The translations under genes and the position numbers were made by a program. A model generated the notes under the pieces. That model saw nothing but the letters and a program-made list of their open reading frames with translations, was not told the DNA's origin and searched no databases. DNA of 64,000 nt from an uncultured Nitrospiraceae bacterium (GTDB lineage Bacteria; Nitrospirota; Nitrospiria; Nitrospirales; Nitrospiraceae): contig CAVSTP010000004.1 in NCBI GenBank assembly GCA_963730935.1, positions 1,440,001 through 1,504,000 on the forward strand, given 5' to 3'. How positions within the stretch are numbered: the first letter of the stretch is position 1; each line of letters begins with the position of its first letter. Positions 39,621 to 55,854 of the stretch are shown piece by piece.

Positions 39621-41769
39621 GTGATCCCCAATTGGCGGATCGGAACCAAGCTGCTCGTCCTCACCGTCCCGCTCATCGCGGTAGCGACACTGCTGGCGAC
39701 ATGGACGCTGCACACGCGCAATGCAGAGCGCCTGCAGGAAATGCTCAAGCACCGCGCCCACAGCATTGCGGCTCAAGTCATGGCCGATCGGCAGTACTAC
39801 GGCGCTGTGGTCGTGCCCCGCGTGGGTGACCTGAAAGGCTCGCTCGGACCCGACTATCGTGACGTTCACGGGCGCTTTCCATTACCCGCGACCTTCGTGC
39901 GCGAGGTGTCCGAACAGCTCGCCCGTTCGGGAGACGGGTACATCACACGGCTGATCAGCCCCTGGCCGATCAACAAAGAAATGGGACCAAAAGATTCGTT
40001 CGAGACCGACGGATTCGCGGCGCTGGCCCATAGTCCCGGCGACCCGTTCGTGAGGACCGATACGGTGGAAGGCCGAGCGGTCATGCGGGTCCTGATGGCC
40101 GATGTTGCCACGTCGACCTCCTGCGTCAGCTGTCACAACGCCCATCCGCAGAGTCCCAAACATGATTTTCACCTCTACGATGTGATGGGCGGCCTGGAAG
40201 TCATCATCCCGATGGACCAGTATCTCGAGGAAACCCGGCAGGACATGGCAATGACGCTAGGCAGTGGACTAGTCCTGTGCTTCCTGGTGTTAGGCATCGT
40301 GTCCGTCGGCGCGCGGTGGACCGTGACCCGTCCGTTGGCTCACATCGCGGAGCGGATGGCGCAGTTCATGAGGCAGCAGCCGGATGAGCAGGTCTCGGGG
40401 CAAACACCGGCATTACCCAGCGGGGATGAAGCGGCCTACCTGACGCAATCGTTCTCCAAGATGGCGAGCGTCATTCGCTCGCAGCAGACCGCCTTGCAGG
40501 AAGCCAATGCCTCCTTGGAGCAACGCGTGCAGGAGCGAACGGCCGAGCTGCGCCGCACGATGGCCGAGAAAGAGCGCATCGGGAGCGAACTTCGAATCGC
40601 CAGCGAGATCCAGAAATCAATTCTGCCTCGCACGTTCCCGCCGTTCCCAGACCGCGAGGACTTCGAGATTTATGCGACGACGATCCCGGCGCTGGAAATG
40701 GGCGGAGATTTTTACGACTTCTTCTTGATCGATGACAAACGGCTCGGCGTCGTCATCGCCGATGTCTCGGGCAAAGGCGTCCCGGCGGCCATCTTCATGG
40801 CCGTCAGCCGCTCGCTCCTCAAAGCCACGGCGTTGGCGTCCGTCTCTCCGAGCGAATGTTTGGAACACGTCAATCGGCTGCTCTGCCCCGACAATGATTC
40901 CGCGATGTTCGTGACCGTCTTCTACGGCATCCTGCATACCGACACCGGGGAGTTGGAATTCAGCAACGGCGGCCATAACGTCCCCTATGTCATCGGCGGC
41001 GAGCGCATCGTCCCCGTCGGAACACCGGCGGCCATGGCACTTGGCGTCCTGAGACGATGCGCGGTATCACACCAGCCGCATGTCGCTCAACGCCGGCGAG
41101 ACGCTCCTGCTCTATACCGACGGGGTGACGGAAGCGATGGACGCCCAGGGCCACCTCTTCTCGACGCCGCGGTTCGAACAGACGCTTCAACGGCTGGCCG
41201 ACCAGCGGCCCGTGCACCTCCTCACGAAGCTGGTTGAGGACGTGCAAGCGTTCTCCAGCGGGGCCTTGCAGGCGGACGATATCACGCTGCTGGCGCTGCA
41301 ATATCGGCAGCCGGCCCTTCTGGAACTCACACTGGCCAATCGCTCCTCTGAACTGCAACGGCTGGCCTCGGAGTTGGAGCGGTTCGCACAGAACCATCGG
41401 ATTCCGGAGCCGGACGTGCACGCCGTGTCGTTGTCCCTCGACGAAGTCATCACGAACACCATCGCCTACGGCTACGACGATCAGGGAGCGCATGACATCC
41501 GGGTGCGTCTGACGCTGGCGAACGGTCGGCTGTCTGCCGAAGTCGAGGACGATGGACGGCCATTCAATCCGCTCACGGCTCCCAAACCGGATCTCACGAG
41601 CGGCGTCGAAGATCGGCCGGTGGGAGGACTCGGCATCCACCTGGTGCGATCGCTGATGGAGCAGGTCGACTATCATCGCGAATCCGGCAAGAATCACCTC
41701 ATCATGAGCAAGCGGCTGAGCGCGGTCGCGCAAGCCGAGACAAAGGCGGGACATCATGGAGATTTCTGA
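39621..41769 (+). CDS. Heme-c sensor (DUF3365/Tll0287-like) + HAMP + SpoIIE/PP2C phosphatase + anti-sigma-type HATPase fusion; frameshift near 41051
   Basis: CVSCH between two TMs, ELRIASEIQ, GGDFYDF, ADVSGKGVPAA, LLYTDGVTEA, DDIT, EVITN, DDGRPFNP and GGLGIHLV. Confidence 0.88.
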
Positions 41770-42518: not shown

Positions 42519-44140
42519 GTGAGACACGTGAGTCACCTGTTTGAGATAACTGCCACAATGTTGGCCGGCCTGGGATTGTTCTTTGTCGGCCTGAAGGAGG
42601 TCTCTCGTCAGCTCACCGCCATGGGAGGCTCTCGGCTCCGTGAGATGGTCACCCAGGCAAGCGCCAACTCCGCTGCCGGAGTCGTGTGGGGAATCGTTTC
42701 AGGCTTCTTCACGCAGAGCGGACGGACCACGTCCTATGTGGTGGCGAGCCTCGTTCACACCGGTGTGCTGCCCGTACGCCGCGCGATGCCGGTAGTCCTC
42801 TGGGCCAACACCGGCTGTTCCTTCATCACGGTGGCGGCATTCCTTCCTACCGAATCACTGATCCTCTTGCTGGTCGGCTCGGCGGGGCTGTGTTACGCAT
42901 ACGAGATTCCTTCTCGATGGCGCAACGTGTCGGGCGCACTGTTCTCGCTCGCGCTCATACTTTTAGGGCTCCTCCTGATCAAAAAGGGCTCCTCTGAACT
43001 TCTCACAATCTCCTGGGCTGCGACACTGTTCGAACTCATCGGCGATTCCGGGCTCCTTGCATTTGTCACAGGCGCGCTCCTCACACTGCTTGCCCAGTCG
43101 CACATCGCGATTATCCTCCTCGCGATCGCCATGGCCCAACCTGGCGTCTACGAATCAGAGCATATTTTCATGCAGGTGTACGGCACCTATGCCGGCTCCG
43201 CCGTCCTGACGTATGTGCTTGGGGTGAGCTTCAAGGGCGTCGCACGGCAGGTCGTGATTGCGCAGGCGTTGTATGGCCTCCTGGGAGCGGCGCTCTTCGT
43301 CGGACTGTTCTATACCGAGGAACTGACCGGCATTCCCTTGGTACAGGCGGCAGCCACTCGGGTGTCCGGACAGATCGCCGTCCAGACGGCGTTCGTGGCC
43401 ATCCTGTTCAGTGTGGTCACCTCTGTACTCCTGACGCTAGTGGCGAAGCCGTATCAAGCGTTCATCGCACGCTTCTGGCCATCCACCGAAGAGGATATGC
43501 TCGCGCACACCCGATACATCAATGAGGATGCCCTGAACCAGCCGGAAACAGCCCTCCTCCTCGCCGAAAAGGAGCACCTGCGGCTCGCCAAGCGGTTTCC
43601 GCTGTACCTCGACGCGCTCCGGAGCGACCGATTGGTCAGCGGACAGCCGGACCCATCGCGTCTACCACGCGGCGTTTCTTGGTATCGGCGAGCGCCTCAC
43701 AAACTTTCTGCGCGACGCCTTGCAACGCACCGATTCTGTAGAACTCGCCGAAAGACTGTTGAACCTCCGTAACCGTCAGGAACTGCTTAAAGGCATCGAA
43801 GAGGACCTGCTGCAACAGTACGAAGCGTTGCGCGCCCGGCCGGGTGGCGCCAAGGCCGCTCAACTGTGCGGAGCGATCGTCGAGGTCCTGGATACCATGT
43901 TGCAGACGATGCTTGAGGCAGCCGAAACCGGCGATCACGACGAGCTGGCACTACTCGGCGCCATGACGTCGGACCGGGGCGAGATGATGGAGCGGATTCG
44001 CAAGAAATATCTCGCAACCGAGGAAGAAGTGACGACGGAAGATCGGGCGCTGATTCTCGATGTCACCCATGGATTTCGAGCGAATCGTGTGGTCCCTTGG
44101 GCGGTATGGCGAGCTGCTCGCACGTAGCGCGACACGTTGA
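42519..44140 (+). CDS. Na+/Pi cotransporter family protein with PhoU-like C-terminus; frameshifts near 43659 and 44077
   Basis: LAGLGLFFVG, twin TQS/AQS motifs, WANTG and a helical C-terminus continuing through ORF 43720. Confidence 0.8.
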
Positions 44141-44154
44141 ACGGGCCTCTTCTC

Positions 44155-44320
44155 CCCTAAGAAGGCTTGGCTCCATCGGATCTCCCGATGCCACAGAACG
44201 ATCATCACCACCGCCAAACGATGGAACCCAGACCCATCCCGAGCAACATGCCATAGAATTCTGCCAGCCTCCATAGAACGCCAGCTGTGCTCATGAATAA
44301 GTCTCCTTCTGGCAGGCGGC
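44155..44320 (-). pseudogene. Degenerate 5' fragment of the 38926..39366 gene
   Basis: CCATCGGATCTC.CGA.GCCACA.AA.GATCATCACCAC...CCCAGACCCAT.CC.A.CAACATGCCATA...TTCTGC.AGCCTCCA.AGAACG matches 39228-39390. Confidence 0.85.
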
Positions 44321-44364
44321 AATTCATCCGGAGAGGATCTTCAATGAACGTTCACGGCGGATAC

Positions 44365-44610
44365 TTACCTGGATTGGTCTTGCTTGGATAAAGGATTGCG
44401 TACCGAGGCAGGGTACTGTCCACCATAATCGCACCGCGTTTCATACGCCGTGTCTTTCTTTATTTCATACGTCGCGCACGGCCGCCCATTTTCGTCTTGA
44501 GAATACCCGATCGCTTGCCGCTGTTTTTCGAAGAACTCACACCCGGACAACAAGGCGAGAACGCCGACGTATAAGAGCAGCCAACGGGGGCCATAAGATG
44601 TTAGTCCCAC
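44365..44610 (-). CDS. Small lipoprotein
   Basis: LSGC lipobox. Lies about 20 nt downstream of 44632..45108. Confidence 0.65.
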   Translation of the reverse strand: MGLTSYGPRWLLLYVGVLALLSGCEFFEKQRQAIGYSQDENGRPCATYEIKKDTAYETRCDYGGQYPASVRNPLSKQDQSR

Positions 44611-44631
44611 GATCTAATCAAGCTATGATGA

Positions 44632-45108
44632 CTATGCCTGTAAGTCTTTATCCCGCTTTAGCGGGGCTAATCCGACCGCATTGACAAAGTCCTTATACCA
44701 TTCGCTGGAGTATACATAGGTGTGAATTAAACCTTCGAATAAATAGCTAACCTCAACATACGCAATCATCCCAATGTATTGCGTGAAGGCTTCGATTTTA
44801 GCGGTATGAGTACGCCGCACTTGAGACGAGGCCTGAAAGACCTCATCGTAAGTGAGCGTCGATCGATGTAAATACATTGTCTTTGTGTCAAAGGACTTAG
44901 CAATTGATAGGAAGCTTTCCCAACGCGGGTCTTCGTCACGATCCCAGGCAGCTTTTGGAAAGCCTTTGTCCTCAATAGTGCCGTAAAAAATCGTAAAATG
45001 ATGCGTCTTGCAGTACGACTCTATCTCCTCAAAAACATCATAAGTCGTGTCCCCTCGCTTGCGTTTCGTCTCCGTCGTCAACCCGCCATGGTTTGATTCT
45101 GGGTTCAT
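44632..45108 (-). CDS. Hypothetical protein (candidate WYL-regulated)
   Basis: 158 aa, GGAGG RBS, AT-richer than flanks, upstream palindromic promoter. Confidence 0.75.
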   Translation of the reverse strand: MNPESNHGGLTTETKRKRGDTTYDVFEEIESYCKTHHFTIFYGTIEDKGFPKAAWDRDEDPRWESFLSIAKSFDTKTMYLHRSTLTYDEVFQASSQVRRTHTAKIEAFTQYIGMIAYVEVSYLFEGLIHTYVYSSEWYKDFVNAVGLAPLKRDKDLQA

Positions 45109-45141
45109 ATACCCTCCACAACCCTAACATTTGCCGTCGGC

Positions 45142-45175
45142 ATCGTAGCAGGAGAGTGTGACAAATAAGGTCACA
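45142..45175 (-). promoter_or_regulatory. Putative WYL-regulator operator/promoter, copy 3
   Basis: Minus strand TGTGACC-TTATT-TGTCAC-ACTCTCCTGC-TACGAT. The -10 box ends 33 nt before the ATG. Confidence 0.75.
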
Positions 45176-45600
45176 TCCTTAAAGTATTTGTGGATCGCGC
45201 AGAAAAATCCAATATTGTAGTGTTTCGCACGGAAAGCAGAATATCCGCATTTGCCTACTGGCAATCTATCTTCCCATCCCTACCCTCACAAGCTTAGGAG
45301 CGATCTTCAAATCGTCCAAACCTCAGGCCGAAGGTTCCTGACACCTCTTCCCACCCACCTTTCCCACCTTCAGACCCAGAACGAGTGCCTGTGTGACCGA
45401 ATGTGAATGGGCTCAAGCGAAATTGAAAGCCCATAGTTGTCACCGGCACCGATGGGATGGGTATTGGCGTCAGATTCTTTCGGCCGCTCAATCAGTTCTA
45501 AAGGGTTGTCCAGGCGATCTTAAGCGTCAAGAAAAGACTCCCGACCCCGATGATGCCCACTTATCGTAGCAGTTACAGGCAAGTCAACTTTGCTGGTGCC

Positions 45601-47304
45601 TCAGCAATTGTCATCAAGTCCAACATGTCGGAGGATATCCTCCTTCGCAGCTTGGTAACTAGTATGGCCGTCAAGGAGGTGACATACATTGACATTCTCA
45701 ACGCCTTGGACATGAATGGGGTGAAGTCCAGCTATGTCCTTGAATTCTAGTTCTGCAGTCCGGTACATGTAACCTAGGACCCAGTCCTTGGGGCAATACG
45801 CGTTGACGAGGCGACCTGCCACTATATTTCGGACTTGTTCCCACCGAGCCGCATCAGCCGAAAAGGCGCCTCCCATTAGAAGCACATGGTCAATTAGTCC
45901 TTTGGAGGGATCTCCGCTTTTTGCCAGATGCTCGAGTGCGTGAAATATCAGTCTAGCACCGAGTGAGAAGCCAATTAATGTGATCGGTCGCTTACCATGC
46001 TGCGCTGTTGCTAGGTGTTCAGCCAAAATTTTTGCTGCCTTCTCGGAACGATCACGTGCAACGGACCATGGACTGTCAATAATATTCGCCAAGCTCAAAA
46101 TTGCGGTAGGCCACGCGAACCTTCGTGCGGCTATGCGACAAGCATGACGAGCAAAGACATGAACTCCCATCAGGCCAGCACTCTGAAAGCCAAACATGCA
46201 CAGTGCTTTCCCGAGATCGAAAAGGTGCTGCGACTCCCAAATTAAGGCGTGGTGCTCACCATGTCCTGTAACCGTAGGAAGGTGACTCCAGGTTTCGACG
46301 GGATTGCTGCGTTCTGAGAAAAATCCAGACACAGCCAGAAAACAGTGCATCCCTTGACCATTGAGGTGCGCGTAACGGTACTCATCAACTTTGCCTACGC
46401 GGGAGGCTACCTTCTTGCCTACTAAGCCTCCGCCAGTGAGTCCAAGTGCCGCCGCTACTGTGGCAGTCCCTCCGGCCATCCCAGCTCCCCCGGCGGCTAC
46501 TGCGCCGCCGCCAAGTGTTGCTAAGCCCGCGCTCGTCGCTGCGGCGCCACTCAGTCCCAAGAAAAAGGTGCCGATTGCTCCACCAATTGCAGGCGCCGCG
46601 ATTGGTGTTAGTAGTACGGCACCGACTGCAGCGGCCGTGGCACCAGCGACAATTTTCCATCGTCGCTCCCGTTTTTGTTCATCGGATTCATTCTGCGTAT
46701 AAGTGGCAGGGGTTGTGCGTAGCTCTCGCGCCAGCTGGTCTTCAAGAGCTGTGATTTGGTTCCAAGGAATGCCGAACATCATCGCTACATACCGGAAGCC
46801 TTCCCGTTCGCGCGCATCATACTTGCCATCTGCCACGGTGGCGGTCAGCAGGTAAGAGAGAACTGTTGACCGGACCTTCTTACTTCTGACGGCCTTCCCG
46901 AACTTCGCTGGATCGGGTTGTTCTGCAACGAGTTGTAAGAGTTTGCCCTGGCTTGCCTTCGATAGCTTGAGATGTTCATACATGCGCCTGAGAAGACTCT
47001 GATCCATGAGCCCTGCCCTAGCGGACAGAGTGGTGAGTAGTGCCGCAACGTTGAAGCGGTCCTTGTCGGAAACATGTTGAAAGAGCAGTTTGTCTTTAGT
47101 GGCGTCTTCTTTTTTCACCTTGAAGCGAAGTCGGCGATCCGATTGCATCGTTCCGGCTTTCCCTTTTAGATTTCTACCGGTAGCATTCTTCTTCGCCTTT
47201 GCCCGCGGTTCTCGTTGACGTCTTTGACTTCGCGAAGAACCTTTTTGGATCGGCCTGCGAGATTTAGACCGTCCAGATGTATGTCTCGCCAACGACTTGC
47301 GCAA
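45601..47304 (-). CDS. DUF726/TMCO4-like alpha/beta hydrolase with N-terminal TerB-like region
   Basis: ADGKYDARERE TerB-like motif, Gly/Ala-rich hydrophobic tract, IDSPWSVARDRS, RPITLIGFSLGAR, GRLVNAY...DWVL and GHTSY. Start uncertain. Confidence 0.82.
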   Translation of the reverse strand: MRKSLARHTSGRSKSRRPIQKGSSRSQRRQREPRAKAKKNATGRNLKGKAGTMQSDRRLRFKVKKEDATKDKLLFQHVSDKDRFNVAALLTTLSARAGLMDQSLLRRMYEHLKLSKASQGKLLQLVAEQPDPAKFGKAVRSKKVRSTVLSYLLTATVADGKYDAREREGFRYVAMMFGIPWNQITALEDQLARELRTTPATYTQNESDEQKRERRWKIVAGATAAAVGAVLLTPIAAPAIGGAIGTFFLGLSGAAATSAGLATLGGGAVAAGGAGMAGGTATVAAALGLTGGGLVGKKVASRVGKVDEYRYAHLNGQGMHCFLAVSGFFSERSNPVETWSHLPTVTGHGEHHALIWESQHLFDLGKALCMFGFQSAGLMGVHVFARHACRIAARRFAWPTAILSLANIIDSPWSVARDRSEKAAKILAEHLATAQHGKRPITLIGFSLGARLIFHALEHLAKSGDPSKGLIDHVLLMGGAFSADAARWEQVRNIVAGRLVNAYCPKDWVLGYMYRTAELEFKDIAGLHPIHVQGVENVNVCHLLDGHTSYQAAKEDILRHVGLDDNC

Positions 47305-47452
47305 TTAGGTCTTCCGCCTTCTCATAACAACGTCCGCCTGTCTGAAACTGTCTGGAATCTTTTATAATGGAAGCGCTAGCTGGAACGCCATGAGCCAAAG
47401 TGGCCGCAGCTTCACGAGCTTTTCGGTCGTCTCTAAATGATTATTCTGGAAC

Positions 47453-47806
47453 TTATCCCGTCGCTCTTTTCACCATCGGAGAGCACGCTAACCATATGTC
47501 TGCAATTGCTCGAACAATGGATTTTTCTCCCACGGTTGGACACGTGTCATATGGAAACGAGCAGCCTATCTGAAATTCCAAATTTGACCGTCGATGAGTG
47601 AGAGCCTCGTACGCCGCCTTGACCCACTCCGCTTGTCGCTTTGTTGGGCCGCGATATCGGCTTGAAGCAGGGAGAGCCGTTCGAGCATCAAACACTAACT
47701 GGCAATCCGGCACACCGTGCGAACGTCGACTCGAAAAGTGTCGCTGAAGCACGATAATTTGTGGAGCGTATCCTTTTACTCTTTTCAGTGCTCGAATGTT
47801 TCGCAT
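47453..47806 (-). CDS. Hypothetical protein, probably the C-terminal remnant of a longer gene
   Basis: 117-aa ORF with no clear RBS and only short ORFs between it and the upstream promoter motif. Confidence 0.45.
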   Translation of the reverse strand: MRNIRALKRVKGYAPQIIVLQRHFSSRRSHGVPDCQLVFDARTALPASSRYRGPTKRQAEWVKAAYEALTHRRSNLEFQIGCSFPYDTCPTVGEKSIVRAIADIWLACSPMVKRATG

Positions 47807-47943
47807 GATTTCGTTTTACCTCTGTACAATCTGCCGGCTTAGGCGACTTGCACCGTTCCGATATGGCGATGCCCAGTCAGCGTTGGCTCAAACGCATACC
47901 GATTTTCGCTGGACAAAGCAATCTTTCAGAAGCTCTTGAGACG

Positions 47944-47977
47944 AGTGTACTCTTCGCGTGTGACAGAACAGGTCACA
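47944..47977 (-). promoter_or_regulatory. Putative WYL-regulator operator/promoter, copy 2
   Basis: Minus strand TGTGACC-TGTTC-TGTCAC-ACGCGAAGAG-TACACT. A one-mismatch extra site lies at 48051-48068. Confidence 0.75.
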
Positions 47978-48145
47978 GGCTGGAAAGGGAAAGTGTGTGC
48001 GGGGTTTCCGGTTAGTTAGAGAAGCCGCACGAAGAGGAAACTTAATTATCTGTCACATCCAGGGTCACGAGTCGAGCTGAGTCAGAGCGACGGCGGCGCA
48101 GGCTCCGGAGGGTATTCACAGCCGGCTATATAAGCTCGCTCTCCC

Positions 48146-49213
48146 CTACCCCGACTGTTGAATGGCGGAGAGGAGCCATTTGCCCTGCTGGTGCCGCATG
48201 AAGGTCCAGAGTTCCGTCGTGTCGGTGGGGCTCTGGTCGCTCCCCTCGATGAGATACCCCGGCTGTCCCGGCTGCTTGCTGGTGGACACCGTGTAGTCCC
48301 GCGCCGTCCATTGGAGTTTGGCCGTGGCGTAGTCCGTCCCCTCTTCCGTCCAAGATTCCTCGAGATCGGCTCTCGTGAGGACCACGTCTTCGACGTGATT
48401 TTCGACTTCCTGACTCGCCTGCTCGGCGAGGGCGGTGCTGAAGTAGGCCAGCATTTCAGGCGTGACGAACCGCCGCAAGGCGGCGAGGTCCTGCTTGCTC
48501 CAGGCGGTTTGAATGTCGATCAAGAGTTGCTGGAAGGCCGCCTTATCCCCCGCCGTGACCTCGCTCTCGACGGTCGCGGTCCGGAAAGGCGCGGCCGAAG
48601 AAGATGCAAAAGAAGATCCAATGGAAGAGGCGTCCAACAGGGACCGGGGCGCGTCCGTCCCCCGGTTCATCCCGGCGAACGCGGGCACGGGCTTGCGCCG
48701 GCGGGAAAAGTAATAGAGCACCCCGCCCGCCACGACCATAAGAAGGAGCATATCCACCGTGTTGAATCCGCTCGCATGGCTCGCCGCGCCGGCCTCCCCG
48801 TCCTCGCTGGTCTTGGCGGTACTGTCGGTGGCGCCGAAGAGCATATGGCCGATCCACGAGCCGGCGAGGCCGGCTGCGATGCCGGTCAATATGGGATGCC
48901 GCTGGATAAGAGACGGATTACTCTGGGCCGTCGGGGCCGGACTGGCTGTTGTTGGTGGCGGCGTGGCCGCCGGCGTCTTGGGCGCGGTCGATTGCTCGAT
49001 CGGCTTCCCGGAGTTTTGATCGTAGGTGCGTGACCCGCGGCTGCCCATGCTGCCCGATCCGCCGCCGCGGGAGCCGCCCGAAAACCCGCCTCCGCCCCCT
49101 CGCGCCTTGGCAAAGGAGACGGTCGGCACGCCGATGAGCGCACAGACGATGCAGGAGGCGATCAGTTTCTTGGTAATCACGAGCGATGTCCTTTCGGTTG
49201 CGGTCGTCGACAC
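48146..49213 (-). CDS. Tim44/TimA-domain putative adaptor protein
   Basis: AKARGG..SGSMGSRGSRTY, GLAGSWIGHML, IQTAWS..DL..LRRFVTPEM and ELWTF...W.LSAIQQ. Confidence 0.9.
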   Translation of the reverse strand: MSTTATERTSLVITKKLIASCIVCALIGVPTVSFAKARGGGGGFSGGSRGGGSGSMGSRGSRTYDQNSGKPIEQSTAPKTPAATPPPTTASPAPTAQSNPSLIQRHPILTGIAAGLAGSWIGHMLFGATDSTAKTSEDGEAGAASHASGFNTVDMLLLMVVAGGVLYYFSRRRKPVPAFAGMNRGTDAPRSLLDASSIGSSFASSSAAPFRTATVESEVTAGDKAAFQQLLIDIQTAWSKQDLAALRRFVTPEMLAYFSTALAEQASQEVENHVEDVVLTRADLEESWTEEGTDYATAKLQWTARDYTVSTSKQPGQPGYLIEGSDQSPTDTTELWTFMRHQQGKWLLSAIQQSG

Positions 49214-49555
49214 GGCAACTGTCCTCCATCATCCTAACAGGTATGGGCGAGAGAAACCGAAGATTCGAAGGCCGTTCGACTCGCGCCGGCCGGGTCACTT
49301 CCAGGTCGAATTCATCCGATGCTTCCCACGCCGGCGGCCAACCAGCGCAATCGCAGGCAGGCCCTGATCGCCGCCCTCTTGGTGGCCTGGGCTGCCTGCT
49401 TGTTGGGCTAGACCTTTGCATCCTTCTAGACCCTGCTCGCGCTCAGTCCCTACAGTTATTGGCCGGTGCCCCGCCGGGAAGCGCTATGAAGACTGTTGCC
49501 GGTCGAAGTCCGGCGCCACGGCCGGGCGCGGAGCTTAAGCGGCGCTTCGATTGCG

Positions 49556-49762
49556 TCAGTAGGGCCGCCGGTTGTATTTGCGGTCGAACTCCTGCTGATC
49601 CAGCTGCTTTCTCATATGCTCAACGTCCAACTGCTGCTGCCGCTCGCGGAAGTAGTCGAACTTCTGCTGTTGCGGCGACCGATTCAGAGAGTCCTTGGCG
49701 ATCGCGGTGACGGCGCTATCGAAGCAGATTCCGAGCAAGATACCGATTAAAAACCCTCGCAT
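49556..49762 (-). CDS. Small exported hypothetical protein
   Basis: AGGAGG RBS, signal peptide and Q-rich helix. Confidence 0.7.
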   Translation of the reverse strand: MRGFLIGILLGICFDSAVTAIAKDSLNRSPQQQKFDYFRERQQQLDVEHMRKQLDQQEFDRKYNRRPY

Positions 49763-50010
49763 GGTGGCCTCCTGCCTGGGCATGTTCTCATGGCGATCAT
49801 CGGCCCTGAATGTTCCACCCTTTGCCGTATGGATTGTTCGGCTTGCGTCACTTGTGGTGGAGCGACGGCTGGAGGGGTGGCGCTTTGTGGAGTATTGGCC
49901 ACCTCTGCCGGCGTGTCCCCACTACCACTCGCACAACCTGAGACTAGCAATAGCAGCCCATAGCATCATTCGCATACATCACCCCACTCCTATGATTTAA
50001 CATTGGCATC

Positions 50011-50445
50011 TTACCGACCCCCTTCAATCCTCCATCCCTTCCCATACGGATTATTCGGGAATCGGGTTTGAACGGACTCCCGGCGCCGAATTGGTTATTG
50101 AGCGAGTCCGGCGAAAACGGCGATCCATAGCGGCCAAACTGGTTCGACGTCGAGTCCGCGATCGTAGGGATTGGCGCTCAGCTTGCCGCGGTAGTTGCCC
50201 TGCTGGTCGTACAGCCTCGGCGCGTCCGTCGCAAACGGGTTGGTCGCCGATGTATTGCTGAACGGACTGCCGTATGGACTGAAGGAGTTGTTGATGCCGT
50301 TGGGCGCGAAGGGGCTCCCCTTCCCGAACGGATTGCTGCTGGATTCGAAATCGAACGGATTGGCGCTGAGGTTGCCGAGGTCTTCGGCTTCGGCGTGGAC
50401 CGGAGCCATCAACAGAGCTGTCAGTAGGATCGATGCAGCGTTCAT
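50011..50445 (-). CDS. Secreted N/P/S/G-rich repeat protein; two compensating frameshifts near 50160 and 50058
   Basis: Signal peptide and two GxLSANPxD...SxxNxFGxxGSPF repeats. The corrected end reads SPNNPYGKGWRIEGGR*. ATGA overlap with the vWA gene. Confidence 0.75.
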
Positions 50446-51122
50446 GGTCGTCCCCCTTTCCCCTCCGCCTCGTTGCTCCCACTGTCCAATAGTGGCTTTT
50501 GAAGCGGGCGGAACGCTGTCTCTGAATGCCTCATCCCCCTCCGATAGCTCGCATTCATGTTGGATAGTTCATTGAACGTTTGGCCTATGTCGCTCTTCGA
50601 GAACGCCACTCGGCATTCCGACGCGATGCCTAAATCCTCGCCCGCCACCCAAACGTCGTGATCCGCTCCGAGATAGACGAACCGCCAGCCCTCCTTCTCG
50701 CATTCCTTGATAAGCGCAAAGATCTGTTTCCTGGTGTAGTCCTTCGAGGCATTCTCCAGACCGTCGGTCAGGATCACGCAGAGCTTCTTGAAGCCCTCCG
50801 GGGACTCCTGCCTGGCGGCGGTCAGCGTTTGGCCGATTGCGTCGTAGAGCGGCGTCGTGTCCTGCGGACGGTAGGTTTCGACGTCTAGCTCGGGGACCGT
50901 GGAGACTGGCACGCCGCGATAATGGACTTCTGTCCTGTGCGAGTTGAACAGGGTGAGCGTGAACCAGGTCGCAGCTGGCTCGTCCTTGAGCGACTTCACG
51001 TACTGATTGAAGCCCGTGATCGCCGCGCGTTTGCACGATTGCATTGAGCCGCTTTCATCGAGAATGAGCGTGACGTAGAGCGGTTGAGGTGCATTCTCTG
51101 AGATTCCGTCGTGTGCTTTCAT
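50442..51122 (-). CDS. Stand-alone von Willebrand factor A (vWA) domain protein
   Basis: MIDAS DESGSM, TPLYDAIG, ILTDGLENAS and GWRFVYLGA. Confidence 0.92.
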   Translation of the reverse strand: MKAHDGISENAPQPLYVTLILDESGSMQSCKRAAITGFNQYVKSLKDEPAATWFTLTLFNSHRTEVHYRGVPVSTVPELDVETYRPQDTTPLYDAIGQTLTAARQESPEGFKKLCVILTDGLENASKDYTRKQIFALIKECEKEGWRFVYLGADHDVWVAGEDLGIASECRVAFSKSDIGQTFNELSNMNASYRRGMRHSETAFRPLQKPLLDSGSNEAEGKGGRP

Positions 51123-51155
51123 GCTCGCCTCCTGGTTGAGTGTTTGAATGGAGGC

Positions 51156-51189
51156 ATTTTATAGAAGCGGTGTGACACGTGAGGTCACG
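51156..51189 (-). promoter_or_regulatory. Putative WYL-regulator operator/promoter, copy 1
   Basis: Minus strand CGTGACC-TCACG-TGTCAC-ACCGCTTCTA-TAAAAT. The -10 box ends 33 nt before the vWA ATG. Confidence 0.78.
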
Positions 51190-51203
51190 CTCAGAGGAAA
51201 AAA

Positions 51204-52276
51204 TTACGAGAGCTGAGCCGAAAGAGAGGGAGGAGCAGGAATGTCAGGAAAGACGCTTGGTTGCGGGGGATCCGTTCGGAAGCCGGCTCCGGCAGCTGCA
51301 TGAAAAATGCGGCGGGATTCGGTCTCCACGGCGGCCCTCAGACTAGTCAGGCCGAACGACACCGAACGCCGCTGCCGAAGCTTAAGACCCAGCCGACGAG
51401 CTCGCGGCTGTCGGCAACGGTCAGGGTCATAAGCATCCCGCCATTCTTCAAGGACGTGAGCTTCTGAGTGGGATGCCAGAGGCGGTCTTTCGCCCAGGCC
51501 GCGGTGGCCTTGTCGAACCGCAGGGCCACGTCGATTGGCCTCCCGCGCATGACGGTCAACGAGTCCCGCACGAACGCCTCCAGGTCGAAGCCAAGCGGCA
51601 TCTGGTAGGGGTGGTCGGTGAGTGTCACCGCGCGCATGCGCTCGACGGCAAACATGCGGGGTTCCTTTCGCTGGTGGCAATAACCGACCAGATAGAGCCC
51701 GCCCGAGGCATACCAGAGCCGGTAGGGATCGACTTCTCGGCGCGTCGTGCGTAGGCGCGACGCGGAATAGTAGCGCATCTGCACCGTTCGCTTCTTCGCG
51801 ATGGCCTGCGTGAGGCGGTCGATGGTTTCCCGATGCAGACGATAGGTCTTGTGCGGGCCTAAGCCAACGGCAAAGACGTTCTGCATCTGTTGCACGTAAT
51901 CGAGGGAATGCGGCGGCAGGAGCCGTGAAGCTTTGGCCATCGCCGATTCCAGTGCCGCCTGGATTTCGGTGCCGGCCAGCGGCTTGAGCAGCGATCGGCT
52001 GATCACGAGCGCCATCAACTCGGTCGGCGAAAACCCCAGCGCAGGCGCCTGACGGACGCCATCCATGAGACGCCAACGTACGCGGCCGTCGATGCGTTCG
52101 TTGATTAGCGGAAAGCCTGCCGATTCGAGCGCTTCCAAATCCCGCCGCACCGTCCGACCGTGCCGGGGATAATCGGCAGGCAACCGGCTGACGATTTCAT
52201 CGAGCGTGACGCCTCGCGGCGACTCCAGCAGTCGAAGCAAATGCCATTGGCGGGTAACCTGATCGTTCCGAGGCAT
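51204..52276 (-). CDS. HTH-WYL-WCX transcriptional regulator (PafBC/DriD-like); two 1-nt insertions near 51345-51362
   Basis: RTVRRDLEALESAGFP HTH, RREVDPYRL...LYLVGYC...RMFAVERM WYL, and WCX WHPTQ...ELVGWVLSFG. The corrected tail reads VRVVRPDSLRAAVETE. Confidence 0.93.
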
Positions 52277-53735: not shown

Positions 53736-55792
53736 TTAGCTTTTCGCCTGAAGTGCAGGTCCATCGATCGAGAGCGTGATATGGAACGCCGTCCCCTCCC
53801 CTTCCTTGCTTTCCACCGCAATCGTCCCTCCATGCGCATCCACGACATCTTTCACAATCTTCGTGCCGAGTCCCGTGCCCCCGACCTTTCGGCTGATCGC
53901 CTTGTACGAGAAGAGACTGTCGCGGACTTCCGGTGACATGCCCTTTCCCGTGTCAATCACCGACAGCACCACGTGCTTGCCCGATTCGTCCAGGCGGCCC
54001 CGAACCGTGACCGATCCACCCGCCGGAACCTCCGGGATCGCATTGTTGACCAGGTTATAGATGCATTAAACAGCCGGCTTTCATCAGCCCGGATGACCGG
54101 CAGCGTGTCGAGTCCCTCTTCGCGGAGCGCCACCTTACCTTCATCGGCCAGGATGCGAAGGGTCTGGTACACGTTCGACACGACGTCGGCCAGGCGGCAG
54201 GGCGCAAACTGCGGAGGCCGCGTCAGGCCTTTGACCGAATCGGCGATCTCTTTGACCCGGTCGTTGATGCGCCGCGAGTTTTGCTTGATCATTTCGGTTA
54301 GTTCATGGGTTCTCTCGCGCGCGGGCTTGGCGGCTGTCACTATTGACTCAGGCAATTTTGAAAAACCTTCGCTCAGTTCCTCTTCGAGCAACTCGGCGCC
54401 GCCCGTAATGGGCATGAGCAAATTCTTGAGGTCGTGCCCGATGTCTCCCAAGACCCGCGCCACTTCGCCGAGCCGTTGCTCCTCAACAAGGCGGGCTTCG
54501 GTTTGCCGGAGCTCTTCTTCCGTCCGCTTGCGATCGACGAACAGGCCGACTTTGATCCCGATATCCGCGACCATATCGAGCACATCCTGATCCGGCTCGC
54601 GGCTCTGCCGGCTGAAAAATTCCATGACGCCATACAGCTGCTCGCCTTTGCACACGGGAAAGGCAATCCCTCCCCGGAGGCCGACTGTCGTGGCAATCTC
54701 CGTGCGGCGGAACGTCGGATCGGCACAGACATCCGGGATCCAGATCGGCTTGCCGGTGGCCCAGACGCGGCCGATGAGTCCTTCCCCCCGTTGAAAGGTC
54801 CGGTCCCGGCTGTCGTCGACGAACCCGCCGGCTTCCACGTGCGGCGCATGCCACAGGGCGACAAAGCGGAGGGCTTGTATCTGTTCATCCCTACTCCAGA
54901 ACATACCCAGCTCCCACTCGAGGCTCTCCCCGAGGGCACGCAAGACTGCCTGAGCCGCATCTTTCAGGGTCGCCGACTCGGCCAGGGCCCTGGTCACCGC
55001 GTATTCCGAGGCCAGACGCCGTCCCGACCGCTTGATCACGGCCAGCGCTGCCCGTGTGTCGCCCACCATCCGCACGTAACCACGGCTCACATAGATCAAC
55101 GCGAGCACGTACGCGATGAGTCGAACGAGATGCCACACCCACCAGGCACTGTCCCAGGGTGCGGAAAACAGGAACATCACTTCGGCCAATCCGAAGAGCA
55201 ATCCCAGCGTCGCGAGCAGCTGATGTTCCGCCCTGCCGGTCCGGCCGGCCTCGAGCCAAAACCCCGCCGCACCGGCAAGGAACAAGACGGCTGCGAATCC
55301 ATTGACCGCGAGCGCAACGGGCGCAAATTGCTCCTGCGTTGTGAATCGTGGCAGTTGATAGGGAGCGACGACGACGAACAATCCGAAGGCCATCGTCCCG
55401 CATGTGACCAGGTAAGGAATGAGGTCCCTGGTCCGCCTCCCGAGCATCCCCGGCGGATGCCACACGAACGAGAAGGCCACGCCGCCCAGTAGACTCGCCG
55501 CGCTGCGCAAGAGCACGAAGCCCTGGTCCGAAGAGGAGACGGCGTGGAACCCTTCCAGGATCCCCATGCCCAGCAGCCCGCTCGCCAGCCCCTGGAGCCT
55601 CTCATCTTCCCACTCCGCTTTCCGTGCGAGTAACACGAGGCCCATCAGGACTGCCGCCAACCCGCCCAGGGCTTCCACCGTCGAATGAAGAGGTACGTGA
55701 ATCGAGATCTGGTGCGGCCAGAGGAAGTGAACGAGCAGACCGGAGAGCAGCGCGGCGGCGACCATACCGATCGGAATGAGAGCTCGAGCCAT
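53736..55792 (-). CDS. Membrane sensor histidine kinase (multi-TM + GAF + HisKA + HATPase); frameshift near 54061
   Basis: About 8 TMs, GAF GEGLIGRVW.TGKPIW, GHDLKN, DTGKGM and GGTGLGT. Confidence 0.88.
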
Positions 55793-55854
55793 AGCACGCC
55801 CCGCGACAGGATAGGCGAGGACATTACGATGGGGGGGAACCAAGGGTCAAGCGG

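Follow-up and report, generated by a model that had tools for sequence, protein, structure and literature searches.

A palindromic operator-promoter and a DriD/DdaA-type WYL regulator of a putative anti-phage regulon in the Nitrospiraceae

In the genome of an uncultured Nitrospiraceae bacterium (GenBank assembly GCA_963730935.1) a single gene for a WYL-domain regulator is followed by a run of co-oriented genes, three blocks of which begin with the same operator-promoter. The question that this locus raises is whether its genes work together as one system or are the local targets of a regulator with a wider reach. The locus spans positions 44365 to 52276 of the window, as we call the whole stretch of 64,000 nucleotides that was analysed (contig CAVSTP010000004.1, positions 1,440,001 to 1,504,000). 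From the letters alone, the original prediction had read it as a WYL-controlled, nucleic-acid-triggered and membrane-directed response. A check of the open reading frames (ORFs) confirmed that all those named lie on the minus strand at the positions and in the order proposed, and Pfam agreed with the WYL, vWA, Tim44 and TerB-like/DUF726 domain calls. The idea of a WYL activator with a shared operator-promoter and a link to defence is supported; that of one fixed system is not. We propose, with a probability of roughly three in four, that the WYL protein is a constitutive activator of a family-wide anti-phage regulon, switched on by single-stranded nucleic acid. The regulon is wider than the window, real rather than a product of chance, and, it appears, devoted to immunity.

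The operator-promoter across the family

The element ahead of the three blocks reads GTGACC-N5-TGTCACAC, with TAnnnT set at a constant 10 nt past GTCAC. Searched as GTGAC-N7-GTCAC-N10-TAnnnT, it has exactly three matches in the 4.05 Mb genome, at window positions 51188, 47976 and 45174 on the minus strand, all of them in the island behind the genome's only WYL gene, which bears out the earlier claim that one operator serves three blocks. A weight matrix trained on 80 operator sites, all from other genomes, placed the same three at the top genome-wide with 27.8-32.8 bits, the next site scoring 17.8 bits and a reversed-matrix control at most 12.3. Each is found by both pattern and matrix: P1 (51156-51188) has its palindrome at 51188-51172 and the -10 hexamer TAAAAT at 51161-51156, P2 (47944-47976) has its palindrome at 47976-47960 and TACACT at 47949-47944, and P3 (45142-45174) has its palindrome at 45174-45158 and a TG-extended -10, TACGAT, at 45147-45142. 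The distance from P3 to the ATG of ORF158, 66 nt, equals that from P1 to the vWA gene. A fourth palindrome of the locus, a one-mismatch copy at 48068 (48052-48068, minus strand), has no -10 and lies 92 bp upstream of P2. No long repeats, the sign of cassette recombination, were found around the three operators, and scans for sigma-70 promoters and terminators gave matches at chance level.

The operator, its spacing and its company with the WYL gene can be read directly from the genomes of the family. Among 201 family genomes, 89 encode a relative of the window WYL protein at E<=1e-40 and 65 carry the strict operator pattern (the reversed control pattern occurs in 2); the pattern is present in 57 of the 89 WYL-positive genomes versus 8 of the 112 WYL-negative ones, kin not being independent. 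These tallies include the unpublished genomes G006 and G076, and no conclusion hinges on either; the G006 locus also entered the WYL-anchored palindrome test and the paired-operator survey, and another unpublished genome, G053, one other tally only. When loci were anchored on a gene, independently of the pattern, 22 of 23 vWA loci (the window's own counted) had a perfect palindrome no more than 260 nt upstream. The WYL-anchored test, in which the -10 was left unselected, yielded 49 distinct perfect palindromes, of which 20 have TAnnnT at 10 nt exactly and 2 have it at any other spacing (3-24 nt). At 74 of 83 operator sites the -35 hexamer matches at two positions of six or fewer, and in no locus of the WYL-anchored palindrome survey does a perfect palindrome lie within 1.5 kb upstream of the WYL gene. 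Since the single-contig genome G055 carries five operator sites across 1.1 Mb, ahead of Cas3 or type I restriction-modification (RM) genes, we conclude that the regulator acts in trans.

Although LexA is rare in the family (found in 10 of the 201 genomes and not in this one), none of 30 recA loci has the palindrome within 900 nt, even with one mismatch allowed, and the matrix search of this genome found no operator at recA. The regulon is therefore no substitute for the SOS response, and a model in which it replaces that response was rejected. As a separate observation, another element, CTAGGTTT-N10-16-(G)GTATAAT, is conserved in 25 of the 30 recA loci (L331-L359; whole loci searched) and stands in this genome at about 64480-64530 of G000:C4 (L327); it is either a variant of the -35 or a site for some unknown regulator, in a family mostly without LexA. 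Hijacking of the operator by phages was also rejected: 111 viral stretches match the pattern, about as many as a chance estimate gives (15 fixed bases; collection size assumed), and none of these 111 loci encodes a WYL, vWA or other leader gene.

Operators often come in pairs. At 37 of 126 promoter-type sites a second palindrome lies within 250 nt upstream (some pairs being counted from both ends), and at 0 of 123 downstream. The spacing is 101-103 bp in 25 pairs and 91-92 or 113 bp in others, and 45, 57 and 132 bp also occur. Steps of 10-11 bp between the spacings hint at helical phasing and looping; because 45, 57 and 132 bp are found as well, we take this as a lead only, and a search of the WYL literature found none on looping among the papers listed. 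Relatives further have 60-490 bp repeats of the promoter or of promoter plus leader. In two loci (L092:8127-11301 and L066:4114-5870) the operator and an exported NPLNP-repeat leader stand in tandem copies of 240-540 bp, 81-90% identical, each preceding a different toxin-antitoxin (TA) or RM cargo in the manner of a cassette array, and short, degenerate, CAGCACT-rich tandem repeats lie directly upstream of operators of genome G001 (L032:6047-6128, L072:6118-6366).

The WYL regulator and its described relatives

The regulator gene (51347-52276, minus strand) encodes a wHTH-WYL-WCX protein (wHTH, winged helix-turn-helix) of the DriD/DdaA type, and Pfam finds the helix-turn-helix (HTH; weak), WYL (E 5e-22) and WCX (E 3e-10) domains all in one gene. 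DriD, its best PDB match, aligns along the full length (E 5e-16); BrxR matches at only E 0.022, and a further WYL entry, which we take to be CapW, at E 0.14. Orthologues extend 17-23 amino acids beyond the end of the window protein, whose last helix is out of frame in the assembly. Close orthologues become scarcer outside the Nitrospiraceae, with matches in 9 other genomes of a phylum sample, two of them at 50-58% identity. No close relative was found on viral contigs. The best plasmid relatives (about 29% identity), the cyanobacterial L390 and L391, sit directly upstream of cas operons.

In Caulobacter crescentus, the site bound by DriD, ATACGAC-N7-GTCGTAT, covers the -35 position of promoters without a -35 and keeps a constant distance to their -10 (PMC13004042). 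In DriD, Arg37 and Arg41 read the core G and C, Glu40 reads the outer C, and Arg207 is needed for full activation (PMC10853764). The operator described here shares the GAC-N7-GTC core, the absence of a -35 and a distance of 12 nt between GTC and the -10, counted by eye on the printed oligonucleotides (PMC13004042). Arg37 and Arg41 correspond to Arg42 and Arg46 of the window protein, invariant in 10 of 10 aligned orthologues, and most residues of the DriD pocket for single-stranded DNA are kept, with counterparts for Tyr168, Ser172, Arg176, Tyr192 and Arg204. Unlike in DriD, the Glu40 position is occupied by Arg45, matching the change of the operator's outer base from C to T, and the Arg207 position by alanine. 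DriD targets are the damage-response genes didA, bapE, recJ and dnaG, whereas the operator described here precedes immunity operons in relatives.

Another close comparison is with DdaA of Moraxellaceae, a WYL protein that switches on RM and CRISPR genes through CGWCA-N5-TGWCG (PMC12392091; PMC13010146). Both are single wHTH-WYL-WCX regulators with a GAC-N7-GTC palindrome core, sites ahead of RM and CRISPR-Cas promoters (here in the relatives, this genome having no such target), a host lineage largely without LexA, and an arginine-to-alanine change at the first WYL arginine, the DriD Arg207 position. The outer bases differ (GTGAC...GTCAC), as does the phylum, and unlike DdaA, which has sites at recA and core-repair genes, the Nitrospiraceae regulon has none at the 30 recA loci and leaves the SOS response unreplaced. 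The available part of the DdaA account does not mention recurrent leader genes or paired operators, and its supplement (PMC12392091) has 0 matches for Nitrospira or Nitrospirota. Our searches of the literature on WYL proteins and Nitrospira, on the motif and on defence regulons did not find this regulon described, subscription papers and preprint supplements being outside reach, and no account of defence regulation was found for this nitrifier family. The earlier claim of an unrecognised system thus holds for lineage and operator; the kind of regulon has been described. To judge from their sequences, the window regulator and operator belong to the DriD/DdaA type, in a defence-only form with exported repeat leaders and, in many cases, another operator some 102 bp further upstream.

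Other WYL regulators stand further off. The PafBC motif is TGTCGG-N10-TA-N3-T, with 10 nt from half-site to -10, as here; PafBC is a heterodimer on a non-palindromic site, whereas here one gene goes with a full palindrome. SiwR of mycobacteria is, like PafBC, a WYL activator that works at a -26 element (PMC10693628). The repressors BrxR and CapW are likewise WYL regulators near phage-defence systems, with an inverted-repeat site (PMC9122601), but they are local and autoregulated with a box downstream of the -10, whereas here the box lies upstream of the -10, at distant loci, and is absent upstream of the wyl gene.

Based on these comparisons we propose that the WYL protein is made constitutively as a homodimeric activator of the DriD/DdaA type, the pocket of which would bind single-stranded nucleic acid from phage, plasmid or DNA damage. 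With ligand bound it would occupy GTGAC-N7-GTCAC across the -35 position and, as the geometry suggests, recruit sigma70-RNA polymerase to promoters whose -10 is not joined by a usable -35. The family-wide operator would be the switch of a trans-acting anti-phage regulon whose cargo, as the sequences show, is interchangeable and often led by vWA, exported Asn-Pro repeat or HD genes. In this genome the regulon would comprise the leader block, a decayed nuclease-like gene with TerB-DUF726, and ORF158 with a lipoprotein.

Genes behind the operator in relatives and in this strain

The cargo was surveyed in 40 WYL loci and 40 further operator loci, long contigs being favoured; genes were called and clustered, one representative from each of 99 downstream gene clusters was scanned, and defence labels were assigned by hand. 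Behind the operator lie type I and III RM genes, Cas3 with I-C, I-E and I-G genes, Cas9-Cas1-Cas2 (CRISPR II), BrxABC (BREX), SspBCDF, HmaA/DrmD-like helicases, AbiE, AriA, GmrSD, Mrr and TA pairs. Of 85 distinct sites, 40 have a core defence gene on the same strand no more than 6 kb downstream, or 54 if TA pairs and candidate systems are counted; the 59 other genes of the window gave four PADLOC matches, all partial and to ordinary enzymes. Apart from one RadC/UvrD pair, core repair genes are absent from the cargo of the 85 sites. Of 10 loci of genus g31, chosen because Tim44 lay close to a site, 9 have the operator at the head of a cas operon. By annotation, the cargo of the relatives is mostly DNA-targeting immunity (RM, CRISPR, BREX, Ssp) and not membrane effectors.

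Two further observations concern this cargo. In the g31 loci (L244-L253), I-C or I-E-like CRISPR-Cas systems alternate at one chromosomal place, between a fixed upstream gene and Tim44. A protein of about 1140 amino acids with RNase H-like and superfamily 1 (SF1) helicase parts recurs behind the operator (L034, L049, L055, L057, L058, L101, L110) and, with its partial match to the Mokosh model, is a candidate single-gene defence system.

The first gene at 46 of the 85 sites belongs to one of six small "leader" families, which comprise vWA proteins, two kinds of exported Asn-Pro repeat protein, small exported proteins, HD proteins and Cys-rich proteins. Three leader genes follow P1 on the minus strand of the window. 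The vWA gene (50442-51122; Pfam VWA; phrog_7371, E 1e-45), a recurrent first gene behind the operator, has family members in 22 of the 201 genomes and in 14 of the 40 WYL loci; the family is common in large phages (217 phage records), an abundance that fits a conflict role and is not proof of one. Next comes the gene of an exported Asn-Pro-rich NPYG/NPFG repeat protein (50011-50445), spread over three frames here and intact in relatives, where it encodes about 143 amino acids; this recurrent leader, present in 19 of the 40 WYL loci, has no Pfam match; relatives of it are present on 9 viral contigs and absent from the GenBank phages. In relatives it is followed, as here, by the gene of a small exported protein of 68 amino acids with an N-terminal hydrophobic stretch (49556-49762; cluster c28), found in 4 of the 40 loci. 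The neighbourhood survey that the original prediction had called for thus confirmed vWA as a companion of WYL and added the two exported genes, whereas Tim44, ORF117, DUF726, ORF158 and the lipoprotein each occur in 0 of the 40 WYL loci; among the window genes, only the three leader genes recur with WYL as judged by homology.

The Tim44-domain membrane protein (48146-49213, minus strand; Pfam Tim44, E 5e-24) is present in 92 of the 201 genomes, where it is a frequent flank of defence loci, cas operons among them, and in G121, G170 and G065 no more than about 6 kb separates it from WYL. None of 20 Tim44 loci fetched has it directly behind the operator. In the closest relative, G121, Tim44 lies upstream of WYL, and the 184 nt 5' of Tim44 in the window are 89% identical to that genome. 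By position it is probably a bystander and not an operator-controlled target.

Behind P2, ORF117 (47806-47453) had been read as a gene. The ORF is there, but it forms part of a decayed 3' remnant (47453-47932, minus strand) that matches residues 264-421 of a parent protein of 400-430 amino acids with three stops on the way, the first 260 residues being absent and no other pieces being found elsewhere in the genome. It has 24 longer homologues at 61-80% identity, and the parent occurs in 4 of the 201 genomes; in G081 the full-length parent follows an HD leader gene, and neither in G081 nor in G139 is there an operator directly upstream. The N-terminal part of the parent weakly resembles PD-(D/E)XK proteins (PDDEXK_4, E 0.21), and the alignments make ORF117 the remnant of a nuclease-like gene.

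The gene that follows (45601-47148, minus strand) encodes a TerB-like domain (weak, E 0.007), a glycine-rich hydrophobic segment and a DUF726 alpha/beta-hydrolase (Pfam, E 2e-73). As recorded, its 515 amino acids start at ATG 47148, 305 nt behind ORF117 and about 800 nt behind P2, and it may have its own promoter. It is strain-specific cargo, found in this genome only of the 201. Like other DUF726 hydrolases (TMCO4-like; PF05277) it has a GFSLG nucleophile elbow and an invariant Ser-Asp-His set, and Ser395, Asp455 and His495, conserved in 24 of 24 homologues, would by this motif be the catalytic triad. It is 32-33% identical to animal TMCO4-like proteins, from which the bacterial form differs by its N-terminal TerB-like domain. 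Neighbourhoods were scanned at the 12 longest-match loci of 42 homologue loci (78 of 115 ORFs), and 3 of the 12 have defence-like neighbours: Lhr helicase with a BrxC/D-type ATPase and PLD; a DEAD/MrfA helicase; and a WCX protein with ADP-ribosylglycohydrolase and PD-(D/E)XK. We regard TerB-DUF726 as a candidate defence effector on these homologies. No paper linking DUF726 to phage defence was found, and a preprint on protease-activated hydrolases (10.1101/2025.11.14.688446) has, in its available part, no bearing on the regulon.

Behind P3 lies ORF158 (44632-45108, minus strand), a soluble alpha/beta protein of an unnamed family and likewise in this genome only of the 201. It has 11 full-length homologues at 64-91% identity and 111 profile matches, and is conserved in metagenomes, a scan of which gave two weak loci. 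A deeper fold raised the confidence of its model (predicted local distance difference test, pLDDT) to 87 from 38 in the first, and comparison with solved and viral folds gave a best Z of 4.2 and no Foldseek match at E<=0.001. Distant relatives of about 250-350 amino acids carry a C-terminal HTH (P0134, P0138, P0142, P0150, P0190); given these, the domain may be a sensor or partner domain, and its place behind the operator makes ORF158 a candidate defence gene. The small predicted lipoprotein next to it (44365-44610, minus strand; 81 amino acids, LSGC lipobox-like sequence, weak coding score) is probably co-transcribed with ORF158 and has two homologous stretches (49-55%) in an operator-bearing locus, L083.

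The base composition of this part of the locus confirms the earlier remark that 44.6-48.1 kb is AT-richer: the GC content is 0.50-0.55 across 44001-48000 versus about 0.60 in the flanks, and at third codon positions (GC3) it is 0.44-0.58 in the cargo genes versus 0.73-0.80 in WYL, vWA and Tim44. A stretch of 25-29 nt in the gap between DUF726 and P3 (45505-45533) is repeated at G000:C4:1472600 (window about 32600) and at C4:860298.

Rival readings and the meaning of the regulon

Several observations weigh against an immunity regulon under this activator. Eight genomes have the operator and no WYL match at E<=1e-40, the near-complete G040, G064 and G084 among them, although one of the eight has a broken WYL gene (L100), and the strict pattern is missing from 32 of the 89 WYL-positive genomes, many of which have GAnnnT or one-mismatch variants. 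A TG-extended -10 at 26 of 83 sites could permit WYL-independent transcription. At 31 of the 85 sites no recognised defence gene lies downstream, some of these sites being at contig ends. The PADLOC check proposed for the window's target genes gave no convincing match, only a partial PDC-M09A on the glycine-rich DUF726 segment, and 9 of the 12 DUF726 homologue loci have ordinary neighbours. Since the Arg207 position is alanine, the ligand may differ from that of DriD. In addition, a second WYL paralogue, 28-34% identical, adjoins a variant of the same palindrome, and some operator sites therefore belong to it. Fourteen sites, often with a variant spacer, lie in elements that carry a DnaG-type zinc-finger gene, and this paralogue adjoins most of them; the second-paralogue elements (L083, L089, L091, L094, L099, L103, L104, L063) have two small conserved ORFs and GmrSD/Mrr/PemK cargo, and are possibly satellite-like mobile elements that share the operator.

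The WYL gene is also frameshifted in its last helix in this assembly, and the NPYG-repeat ORF near its 3' end. Because the two extra WYL bases, at 51365 and 51347, are both missing from a related contig (at depth 4, weak), and because unrelated window genes, for a phosphatase/anti-sigma-like protein, a Na/Pi cotransporter and a histidine kinase, are split across frames too (39621-41769, 42519-44127 and 53736-55843), an assembly error seems likelier than decay; in the sequencing runs searched for the locus, at most 12% of its words were present. If the frameshifts were genuine, this strain would hold a relic, a truncated WYL protein with leftover targets that have no defence function, in a family whose regulon is real. 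The ORF117 remnant, the degenerate distal operator and a genome without Cas1, whose one N6-methylase locus has no operator ahead of it, would suit such decay; three perfect operators with intact -10 elements, the indels in unrelated genes, the related contig, the intact DUF726 triad and an ORF158 that is full length in 11 homologues speak against it. We consider a relic rather unlikely, and it would concern this strain only and be compatible with an activator in the family at large.

DNA looping is common in repression, and the paired operators that suggest it, together with an operator overlapping the -35 position and extended -10 elements that could fire alone, are what a repressor would call for, with WYL blocking the -35 region until its ligand releases the block; BrxR-type repressors, moreover, control defence cargo (PMC9122601). 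The boxes of BrxR, however, stand ahead of brxR itself and downstream of the -10, whereas no perfect palindrome lies upstream of WYL here, and the far stronger match is to DriD. Because the fixed 10-nt spacing, the missing -35 and the lack of a perfect operator upstream of WYL suit an activator, we favour activation and hold repression to be improbable. Even less credit can be given to the fixed membrane-directed system of the original prediction, in which vWA, exported proteins, Tim44 and a DUF726 lipase would act together. All these genes are co-oriented behind WYL here, the three leader genes recur together, Tim44 lies near WYL in three genomes, and short contigs of related soil strains span the small exported gene into Tim44; but DUF726 and ORF158 are each confined to one genome in 201 and the ORF117 parent to four, ORF117 is a remnant, Tim44 and the cargo are absent from the 40 WYL loci, Tim44 is not directly behind the operator in any of the 20 loci fetched for it, the cargo differs from WYL, vWA and Tim44 in GC3, and the relatives' cargo mostly targets DNA. 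On the distribution of its genes across the WYL loci and the 201 genomes this model was rejected.

The trans-acting activator that we favour can be carried further, in a form that we put forward tentatively and think more apt to fail than to hold. Mostly LexA-less nitrifiers of the Nitrospira type might run a dedicated immunity regulon, with a single WYL sensor that turns on every defence locus of a strain in trans by way of a portable promoter module; the module might consist of a phased pair of operators, spaced by 92, 102 or 113 bp and looped by WYL dimers, and an exported Asn-Pro repeat or vWA leader, duplicated ahead of new cargo. The leaders might then be a new surface-level defence or alarm, and TerB-DUF726, as a bacterial TMCO4-like lipase, and ORF158 might be new anti-phage effectors found by their operator.

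The operator is also a tool for discovery: the 31 sites ahead of genes without a defence label include those of the DUF726 hydrolase and ORF158 here. The finding extends that on DdaA to a second phylum, in a defence-only form, with the promoter geometry of DriD reused while a single outer base and a single reading residue have changed. In a family that drives nitrification, the immune genes (RM, four CRISPR subtypes, BREX, Ssp and AbiE) now have a defined operator and a candidate regulator.

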